Positions 56,440 through 58,919 of a stretch of DNA of 64,000 nucleotides are shown in pieces (the first letter of the stretch is position 1; the number at the start of each line of letters is the position of its first letter). The notes under the pieces are model-generated. The model was not told where the DNA came from. It ran no database searches and was given only the letters and a program-made list of their open reading frames with translations. Position numbers and translations under genes: made by a program. The DNA lies in the NCBI GenBank assembly GCA_951406725.2, contig OX597814.1, positions 36,952,001-37,016,000 on the forward strand, in the 5' to 3' direction. The stretch is from Octopus vulgaris (taxonomy: Eukaryota).

Positions 56440-57400
56440 CTAGACAAAATGAGATAACAAAGCCAAAGCTGTGAGTAGTCTTCAGGACATTTTAAAGGAA
56501 AAAGATAAAGATACAGTCTTACAGCTGTTTCTGGTATAATATGAATATCCCTTCATCAGAGATGGTGTGAGATTGTGAAAAAACGGGGACTACTTGAGTT
56601 CGAAATAAGAAATTATTATGGAAAAGGAGGAGATAGGGAATATAGAGGGAAAAAATAATAAAAGTAGAAATACAATGTAAAATATATAAAGATATTGTAG
56701 TTGCAGTTCCATTATTCTAGGATAGTGGTGTATAGAAGTGGTTAAAATGCTTCCTGTACATGGTATGTAAGTTCCAATAGTAGTTCATGTTTAGTTATTT
56801 CTAAGTATGGAGCCGTGGATTCTGTGTTGCTCATTCGGAAGCGCCTTGCAGTGTGAATGAAAATATGAGAATTTATTGGTTGTATTTGTTGTTTGATGGT
56901 TGGTGGGGGAAAGATTGTATGATTAGAATGAAGAGAAAGATCAAAATGAAAACAGGAAGAAAAAATGAGAGGAAGAGAGAAAAAGTGAAAAGAATGAAAA
57001 CGTGTACAAAGGGTGAAAGAAGTGAGAAAAGGAGTGTTAGTGTGTAGCCAAGATAATGTGAGAAGATGATAGTATAGGAATGGGGGAGGGATAAAAAGAG
57101 ATGAGAAGGTAAGGAGAGAACAAAATGAGAGAAAAAGGGAAAAGAATGAAAAACGTGTACAAAGAAGTGAGAAAAGGAGTGTTAGTGTTTAGTCAAGATA
57201 ATGTGAGAAGAGGATAGTATAGGAATGTGAGTAGGGGTGTTATGATAGAGCTGCATTAAAGGATGGGTAGCGAAAAGGTGTAGGTGTGGTGATACCAAAG
57301 TGAGTAGTAGATTTTAATAGTAAAATGTAAAGTCTAGGGATGACAAGGATGTCAAATTTCTATAAATATACATATATGATTGCATAGGTTACCGTGATAG
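56440..57400 (-). mobile_element. PLE-like terminal region with minimal HHR and ~100-bp direct repeat
   Basis: Minus tct-CTGATGA-agggatattcatattatacca-GAAAC-AGCT-GTA-aga at 56517-56564; 56976-57082 repeated at 57130-57227. Confidence 0.65.
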
Positions 57401-57721
57401 CTAGGAATTAAACAACAGAAAAGAAGGTGTAATGAAATACATACGCGCGCTCACTCATACATATATATGAGCACATATGCATACATACACACATACACAT
57501 ATATACATATACATACATGCGCATATACATGCACATACATAAATAGACGTGCGTGCTCCTGCACATCCGTAAATGTATTCATACATGCATATGCGTGCGC
57601 ATACATATATACATATATGAAGTTGAAAATGCACTGAGAATAATTTTTAAAAAAATTTCTACCAAAAATATTACTAATCCCACCGAATGCAATTTTTCAA
57701 AGTAAGACATTTAAAAAATAT

Positions 57722-57769
57722 AGACCTGTATCACAGTGATTTCATACTTACGTATTCATCAGCAGGCCT
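57722..57769 (-). ncRNA. Type I hammerhead ribozyme, copy A
   Basis: Exact reverse complement of copy B. Confidence 0.88.
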
Positions 57770-58106
57770 GAATGTATCATAAATAAACGACCCTGCCCCG
57801 CTTAAGCCGGTCAGCTAACTGATCAACATCAACGAAGCACATGGGTGAGTTTACATATATTACATCCTGTAAATGGCATACTTTTACGAATTGCATTTCG
57901 GGAAAGGAAAAGTTTTTTCGGAATAAAAATTTAGCAAAAAACTTTAGAAAAATTTAGAAAAAACTTTTCCTTTTCCGAAATGCAATTCGTAAAAGTATGC
58001 CATTTACAGGATGTAATATATGTAAACTCACCCATGTGCTTCGTTGATGTTGATCAGTTAGCTGACCGGCTTAAGCGGGGCAGGGTCGTTTATTTATGAT
58101 ACATTC

Positions 58107-58154
58107 AGGCCTGCTGATGAATACGTAAGTATGAAATCACTGTGATACAGGTCT
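58107..58154 (+). ncRNA. Type I hammerhead ribozyme, copy B
   Basis: Stem I AGGCCTG/CAGGTCT (7 bp, one G-U), core CTGATGA, stem II ATAC-GTAA-GTAT, GAAA, stem III ATCAC-T-GTGAT, AUA triplet; predicted cut after 58147. Confidence 0.9.
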
Positions 58155-58582
58155 ATATTTTTTAAATGTCTTACTTTGAAAAATTGCATTCGGTGGGATT
58201 AGTAATATTTTTGGTAGAAATGACTAATTGTCCCTCTTAGCGTGTGGCATGTATGTATAATGCCCTCTGGCATGTATGTATAATGCCCACTATATATAAA
58301 TTAATATGTTCAATAAGAAATAATTATTTTCGAAATTTATTCTCTTATGAGGTTTTCACGCTATCTACCTGACAATTTCTTGTTAAGTTTTCCTTATTAA
58401 GTAGTTGTCCTTAATTGCTAAATTTTTATTCCGAAAAAGCTTTTCCTTTCCCGAAATGCAATTCGTAAAAGTATGCCATTTACAGGATGTAATATATGTA
58501 AACTCACCCATGTGCTTCGTTGATGTTGATCAGTTAGCTGACCGGCTAAAGCGGGGCAGGGTCGTTTATTTATGATACATTC

Positions 58583-58630
58583 AGGCCTGCTGATGAATAC
58601 GTAAGTATGAAATCACTGTGATACAGGTCT
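58583..58630 (+). ncRNA. Type I hammerhead ribozyme, copy C
   Basis: Identical to copy B; predicted cut after 58623. Confidence 0.9.
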
Positions 58631-58884
58631 ATATTTTTTAAATGTCTTACTTTGAAAAATTGCATTCGGTGGGATTAGTAATATTTTTGGTAGAAATGAC
58701 TAATTGACCCTCTTAGCGTGTGGCATGTATGTATAATGCCCTCTGGCATGTATGTATAATGCCCTCTATATATAAATTAATATGTTCAATAAGAAATAAT
58801 TATTTTCGAAATTTATTCTCTTATGAGGTTTTCACGCTATCTACCTTATTAAGTTTTCCTTATTAAGTAGTTGTCCTTAATTGC

Positions 58885-58919
<35 letters not shown>

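Follow-up and report, generated by a model that had tools for sequence, protein, structure and literature searches.

The window analysed here, a stretch of 64,000 nucleotides (64 kb) of the Octopus vulgaris genome, contains exactly three hammerhead ribozyme motifs when searched with a descriptor that checks the stems. Their cores lie at 58114 and 58590 on the plus strand and at 57762 on the minus strand. All three are identical and of type I, with a stem I of 7 bp including one G.U pair, a stem II of 4 bp capped by a GUAA loop, a stem III of the form AUCAC-U-GUGAU and an AUA cleavage site. The motifs occupy 58107–58154 (+), 58583–58630 (+) and 57722–57769 (−), with predicted cuts after 58147, 58623 and 57729 respectively; the first is backed by covariation within the family, described below, as well as by the descriptor. 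In 100 dinucleotide shuffles the descriptor gave 0.08 loose and no strict matches per window, which upholds an earlier sequence-only reading of this DNA in reporting three identical type I hammerheads; its description of them as intact holds at the level of sequence. The Rfam search that it had proposed found no hammerhead family at E ≤ 1 in the window or at E ≤ 10 in a 141-nt segment, and the motif was found by the descriptor. Rfam matches to miRNA families were rejected as long-hairpin or microsatellite artefacts far under the gathering scores. There is a hammerhead-like core of another repeat at 56515–56560 on the minus strand, which fails the stem descriptor and folds no better than shuffles.

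The three motifs belong to an insertion with two arms of opposite orientation. The long arm (57957–58889, +) consists of approximately 1.96 units and terminates at the position designated end B of the family; it includes one full cut-to-cut monomer of 476 nt (58148–58623, +), and there is a 10-nt deletion in the last unit. The inverted arm (57655–57937, −; 283 nt) covers unit positions 268–476 and 1–74, numbered from the cut site, and is 99% complementary to the plus arm. The proposed arrangement of units 476 nt apart together with an inverted partial copy is thus correct, and what had been described as two near-identical units is indeed a tandem, although one that falls slightly short of two units. 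Between the arms (57938–57956) is a short imperfect duplication of neighbouring A-rich sequence. As had been stated, the element has no ORF of note, the longest frames being below 90 aa.

Within the monomer, which is predicted to be strongly self-paired (z −7.4), a 23-nt internal tandem duplication (58245–58291, +) is situated directly upstream of site A (58291–58301, +; unit ~144–154), a TATA-like sequence, TATATATAAAT, at which family copies end in (TA)n and which we infer to be the start site of reverse transcription. Site B, the second fixed end position, is at 58419–58423 (+; unit ~272–276). The terminal segment between sites A and B, to which we refer as the tail (58778–58889, +), is 10 nt shorter than the ~122 nt of the family, and at end B lies the target, an (AT)15 microsatellite (58888–58917). 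The left end is irregular in that the minus arm halts at unit position 74 and joins a foreign cap (57617–57654, −) that replaces the usual end A and (TA)n. The array had been given as 57617–58889, and it holds from 57655; the cap is not part of the unit, and some 36–45 nt here resemble the 3' end of an older Penelope-like family, with a near-exact match at one other genomic site. Copies of that family are 80–83% identical to the query and several have same-strand GIY-YIG remnants upstream; it was rejected as the mobilising partner because of its age, as reflected in this identity. The cap could derive either from a template switch or from a pre-existing remnant together with a deletion. Elsewhere in the window, positions 287–1025 contain remnants of a broken Penelope-like element (PLE) reverse transcriptase (RT) and endonuclease region, about 50% identical to a 781-aa protein described below, and at 1571–1795 there are tandem repeats of 56–112 nt that by eye are like the 3' UTR repeats of the 781-aa family.

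The unit is a member of a dispersed multicopy family of low-GC, ORF-less tandem units, each with a type I hammerhead. A copy-number search, as had been suggested, found the exact 40-nt ribozyme at 107 sites genome-wide and the pattern of core plus stem III at 1,420 sites, with none in a reversed control. With the monomer as the query, the 2.8-Gb genome yielded 1,421 first-look candidates, and among the 40 of these that were scored, full-length matches are 91–100% identical. Copies are spread over more than 20 contigs with unrelated flanks. The exact and related copies, together with the compensatory changes in stems I and II, argue that the array is not an assembly artefact. The array had also been called young, which is supported; the window insertion is not among the youngest, since its three copies bear several single-copy changes. 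One variant is common to all three window copies and absent from the other sampled loci. The hammerhead and retrozyme literature for octopus or cephalopods that we searched contained no description of the family, with supplements, Repbase and Dfam outside the search and earlier annotation therefore possible. A search of sequencing runs found part of the stretch in 20 of the 24 rows listed, no RNA run being among them, which is neutral with regard to expression.

Variation among the ribozymes provides further insight. Across 52 distinct variants, pairs 1–5 of stem I, which was outside the search pattern, hold in 31–36 of 36 stem types with double-sided changes, and the basal two pairs of stem II alternate between G-C/A-U and C-G/U-A; the variants are related and hence do not represent independent events. 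U1.7 is conserved in 34 of the 36 stem types while its Watson-Crick partner varies, and an unpaired U at this position has been proposed to touch the last A of a GNRA loop 2 (PMC11875169). Core positions are mismatched at 0 of 468 compared with 295 of 18,425 overall, to which we give no weight because an exact match to the ribozyme had served to select part of the loci. Diverged subfamilies (L153–L202) have an extended stem II with an insert of 23–29 nt, and stem III and the end behaviour are unchanged.

The monomer folds far better than shuffles (sense z −7.4 to −7.7; antisense z −4.3), as do the diverged subfamilies (z −5.0 to −8.5), compared with 0.0 for a PLE 3' UTR and flanks that are likewise without strong folding; an isolated 78-nt ribozyme folds no better than shuffles (z −0.3). 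In the predicted monomer structure stems I and II form, and the 5' strand of stem III is base-paired to the core with a probability of ~0.9, the active stem III having a probability of 0.03. Two isolated 48-mers are predicted to favour a double-hammerhead fold (−31.1 versus 2 × −12.1 kcal/mol), and in the folding ensemble of the full precursor the probability of the double-hammerhead stem III is near 0. For a read-through plus-strand transcript of the locus, the 283-nt inverted arm is predicted to engage one of its two sense ribozymes in a duplex, and any sense ribozyme left free to adopt the core-masking misfold. Because the inverted arm would mask one ribozyme, the window locus is probably a poor source of RNA, and longer arrays elsewhere in the genome are the more likely sources. 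The 476-nt product forecast from the sequence would thus be right for the family and is doubtful for this locus.

The manner in which copies are inserted was examined at 75 distinct loci; the best DNA matches contributed 31 and the list of exact ribozymes 44, duplicate loci of one array (for example L005, L018 and L026–L028) having been removed before counting. A (TA)n tract is present on both sides of 64 loci and on one side of the other 11, and conceals any target-site duplication. Fifty-nine of the insertions are inverted and 16 direct. Copies terminate at either of two fixed points of the unit, separated by about 122 nt, A at ~150 nt and B at ~275 nt after the cut, and where an inverted locus has two regular ends, A is paired with B in 50 of 52 cases (binomial p 6e-13). 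The remaining inverted loci are one A/A, in which the second end is truncated, one B/B, and seven with one irregular end, including the window. Nine of the direct insertions end at A and seven at B, and their 5' flanks have in common only simple repeats and one older-repeat pair (L010/L149). Subfamilies at 70–90% identity have equivalent ends and retain the ORF-less layout. The inner arm junctions, by comparison with these fixed ends, are scattered over the whole unit and differ at nearly every locus. The cut site is traversed by arms in 171 instances and is the exact terminus of none of the 134 arms, the five mapped at position 1 actually beginning 8–19 nt upstream. With 5' truncations over the whole unit and none at the cut site, a cleaved linear monomer was rejected as the template.

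Intact RT-linker-GIY-YIG frames are present in at least two of the genome's Penelope-like families, with lengths of 781 aa and 775 aa. All of the 150 copies of the 775-aa family scored, from 19,930 candidates, are ~100% identical, and 46 3' ends have a median identity of 99.8%. Its insertions lie in (TA)n, and all 19 of the inverted ones combine an end bearing a 33-nt tail with a short end; these were picked by protein match, and a 20th fetched region is a direct tandem. In a domain search on a partial copy, RVT_1 scored under its cut-off and GIY-YIG over. Among its loci (L263–L292) we see a head-to-tail period of 4,271 bp, for example at L292, and a hammerhead-like core, CCGAAGA, at L269. The 781-aa family has a 38-nt tail and mixed ends in 3 of 5 inverted pairs, a sample biased by the DNA query. 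Its loci (L091–L097, L203–L232) have an overlapping upstream frame and a U3-A8 variant of a minimal hammerhead-like core, a variant reported for Cercyon PLEs (PMC4209133). A linker motif (CX2-5CxxC before a C-terminal GIY-YIG) is present in the candidate partner translations and agrees with the linker described for the Neptune/Nematis type in PMC8557442.

The earlier suggestion that Penelope-like machinery mobilises the array is therefore supported by the signature of the ends, with A/B pairing at 50 of 52 loci against 19 of 19 tailed/short pairs in the autonomous family. As this end rule is common to the unit and the 775-aa PLE family, the unit acts like a PLE substrate with a tail approximately four times the usual length. 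The inverted arm and one-sided tail of PLEs have been described before (PMC3846280, PMC8557442), and a PLE protein has been reported to cut and extend both strands in vitro and to initiate at two sites within the RNA by which the tail is defined, the ribozyme being dispensable for insertion (PMC11167929). At the DNA level the unit matches neither intact family significantly (best E 0.13; 0.11–0.39, short AT-rich matches only), and the PLE partner is for this reason deduced from the signature alone.

Because of these patterns we think it probable that the locus is a two-armed insertion of an ORF-less 476-nt non-LTR retrozyme, written into (TA)n in trans by the RT/GIY-YIG protein of a putatively Neptune-type PLE, most likely from a circular template. 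In this model the protein of an autonomous PLE would act in trans and cut both target strands, and each DNA end would prime cDNA synthesis at its own position within the sense RNA, ~150 nt (A) or ~275 nt (B) after the cut. The two cDNAs would then extend toward each other and be joined at random truncation points. The template, which is not the cleaved linear monomer, would most likely be a ligated circle read round repeatedly. According to the predictions, the ribozyme cuts mainly in the double-hammerhead form and masks itself in the monomer, so that circles would remain stable.

The nature of the template can be approached through the uniformity of the arrays. Units of one array diverge by 0.4%, as against 2.6% for units of different loci, and in 45 of 51 loci an arm is more similar to the opposite arm than to the average copy outside. 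Substitutions private to one locus number 168, of which 142 affect a single copy, 8 some copies and 18 every copy that covers the site; nine of these 18 span both arms, one of them in the window. A 15-kb insertion (G000:C1:64.6397–64.6552 Mb; L183, L184) has 31 ribozymes in a row in ~31 near-identical units; its inverted arm finishes at A and its long arm at B, with a single singleton substitution in 30 units, and a near-uniform array with normal ends fits the rolling reverse transcription of a circle proposed earlier for such elements (PMC7229834, PMC4209133). Some variants in long arrays are, however, common to non-adjacent units, and an eight-unit array (L145; G000:C5:2.04 Mb) has variants in a period-3 pattern, which is interrupted at some distance from the cut site, between unit positions 338 and 384; both suggest expansion or conversion at the DNA level and weaken the argument for a circle. 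We therefore lean, by no great distance, towards a ligated circle in preference to a multimeric transcript that stays uncleaved.

The shared variants and the period-3 pattern would be accommodated if the same mobiliser copied an uncleaved linear multimer, the ribozyme were weak or incidental and long arrays grew by duplication of DNA. The core misfold predicted at a probability of ~0.9 points the same way, as does the report that RNA which has not been processed is the prevailing PLE substrate in vitro (PMC11167929). We nevertheless regard this as rather unlikely, though it is the most serious of the alternatives, as the stem covariation and the retention of U1.7 down to ~70% identity argue for a selected, working ribozyme, the array of 31 ribozymes shows hardly any variation and has A and B ends of the normal kind, and self-pairing of the unit is strong, as in reported retrozyme circles (PMC7229834).

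It is improbable that the unit is a pseudo-LTR (pLTR) or the 3' end of an unsampled autonomous PLE, of which the copies seen are 5'-truncated, notwithstanding a layout of ribozyme, ~150 nt, short end and tail that parallels PLE 3' ends in this genome and the fraction of PLE candidates scored (150 of 6,136 and 150 of 19,930). The two intact PLE families have different hammerheads, and those typical of pLTRs are minimal (PMC4209133); the subfamilies at 70–90% identity keep the ORF-less layout; and the 69 arms longer than one unit run into another unit and never into an ORF. That the unit might prove to be the pLTR of a described PLE had been raised from the outset, and in a tblastn screen of 118 unit-bearing loci it forms the pLTR of no PLE seen. 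PLE protein matches occur at 12 of these loci, with ten set apart from the unit by (TA)n and one beyond the inverted arm; the last (L192) is a broken, diverged PLE whose 3' UTR adjoins a partial unit, and is the one locus of the screen that favours this alternative. Inverted termini and TA targets occur in MITEs, and as some arrays appear homogenised at the DNA level the family might be viewed as a DNA-level mobile repeat or satellite (MITE- or Helitron-like, with the arms as terminal inverted repeats), or else as an assembly artefact. This we consider very improbable, as the two insertion ends differ by a fixed 122 nt, the inner junction varies nearly everywhere, the end rule agrees with that of an RT-encoding family and the copies, on more than 20 contigs, have unrelated flanks.

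Returning to the retrozyme copied in trans, a more specific and quite tentative version is that a circle produced by the ribozyme, lacking any detectable match to the PLEs seen, hijacks a dimer of the PLE RT/endonuclease, with one subunit starting at A and the other at B; the subunits would run round the circle and write up to 15 kb per event, the monomer masking its own core so that only tandem precursors are cut. If this is true, the genome would prove that an animal retrozyme undergoes rolling-circle target-primed retrotransposition and that each target end uses one of the two PLE start sites. PLEs have been strong candidates for the mobiliser of animal retrozymes (PMC7229834), and Li et al. 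2026 (bioRxiv 10.64898/2026.07.22.740005) add support from sequence and co-occurrence and leave the mechanism unresolved. The present family bears a PLE insertion footprint beside a very young intact PLE with an identical rule, and supplies a defined RNA together with candidate enzymes and two start sites that have been mapped, such that the mobilisation question is directly testable. The near-strict pairing of tailed and short ends (50/52; 19/19) also sharpens the known one-end tail and the observation, made in vitro, that there are two start sites.

Taken together, the family is likely a non-autonomous non-LTR retrozyme, copied in trans by a Penelope-like RT/endonuclease from circular or uncleaved RNA. 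Animal non-LTR retrozymes are already established, and the PLE insertion footprint on a retrozyme is unusually direct evidence for mobilisation. The literature searched, which did not extend to supplements and repeat libraries, contained no description of an inverted-arm or tail signature for retrozymes. Those of coral, mussel and axolotl, as reported in PMC7229834, are likewise ORF-less, low-GC tandem repeats in which every unit has a type I hammerhead; their predicted monomer is strongly self-paired, and they co-exist with autonomous PLEs as here. The unit of 476–481 nt is slightly over the 150–450 bp quoted there, and the (TA)n target, inverted arm and two fixed ends are without a counterpart in the passages of that account consulted here. 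Most animal retrozyme circles are predicted in the same source to leave the core free, whereas the monomer here is predicted to mask it; circles are reported for those elements, whereas this family is known from DNA. The vertebrate non-LTR retrozymes of Li et al. 2026 occur as monomers, dimers and multimers, with cleavage reported in 1 of 9 predicted dimers and the same proposed parasite-host tie to PLEs. The link to PLEs there, made by sequence in Xenopus, consists of pLTR sequence similarity and co-occurrence, whereas here it consists of an insertion signature with no detectable pLTR similarity. Neptune/Nematis-type EN+ PLEs, as described in PMC8557442, PMC3846280 and PMC11167929, likewise have a partial tandem with an inverted arm, a tail at one end, a (TA)n target and a hammerhead near the 3' end. 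By comparison with them, the family described here has no ORF, a tail of ~122 nt and not 30–40, a unit of 476 nt and not a 4-kb element, and a full hammerhead with a 7-bp stem I where theirs is minimal.
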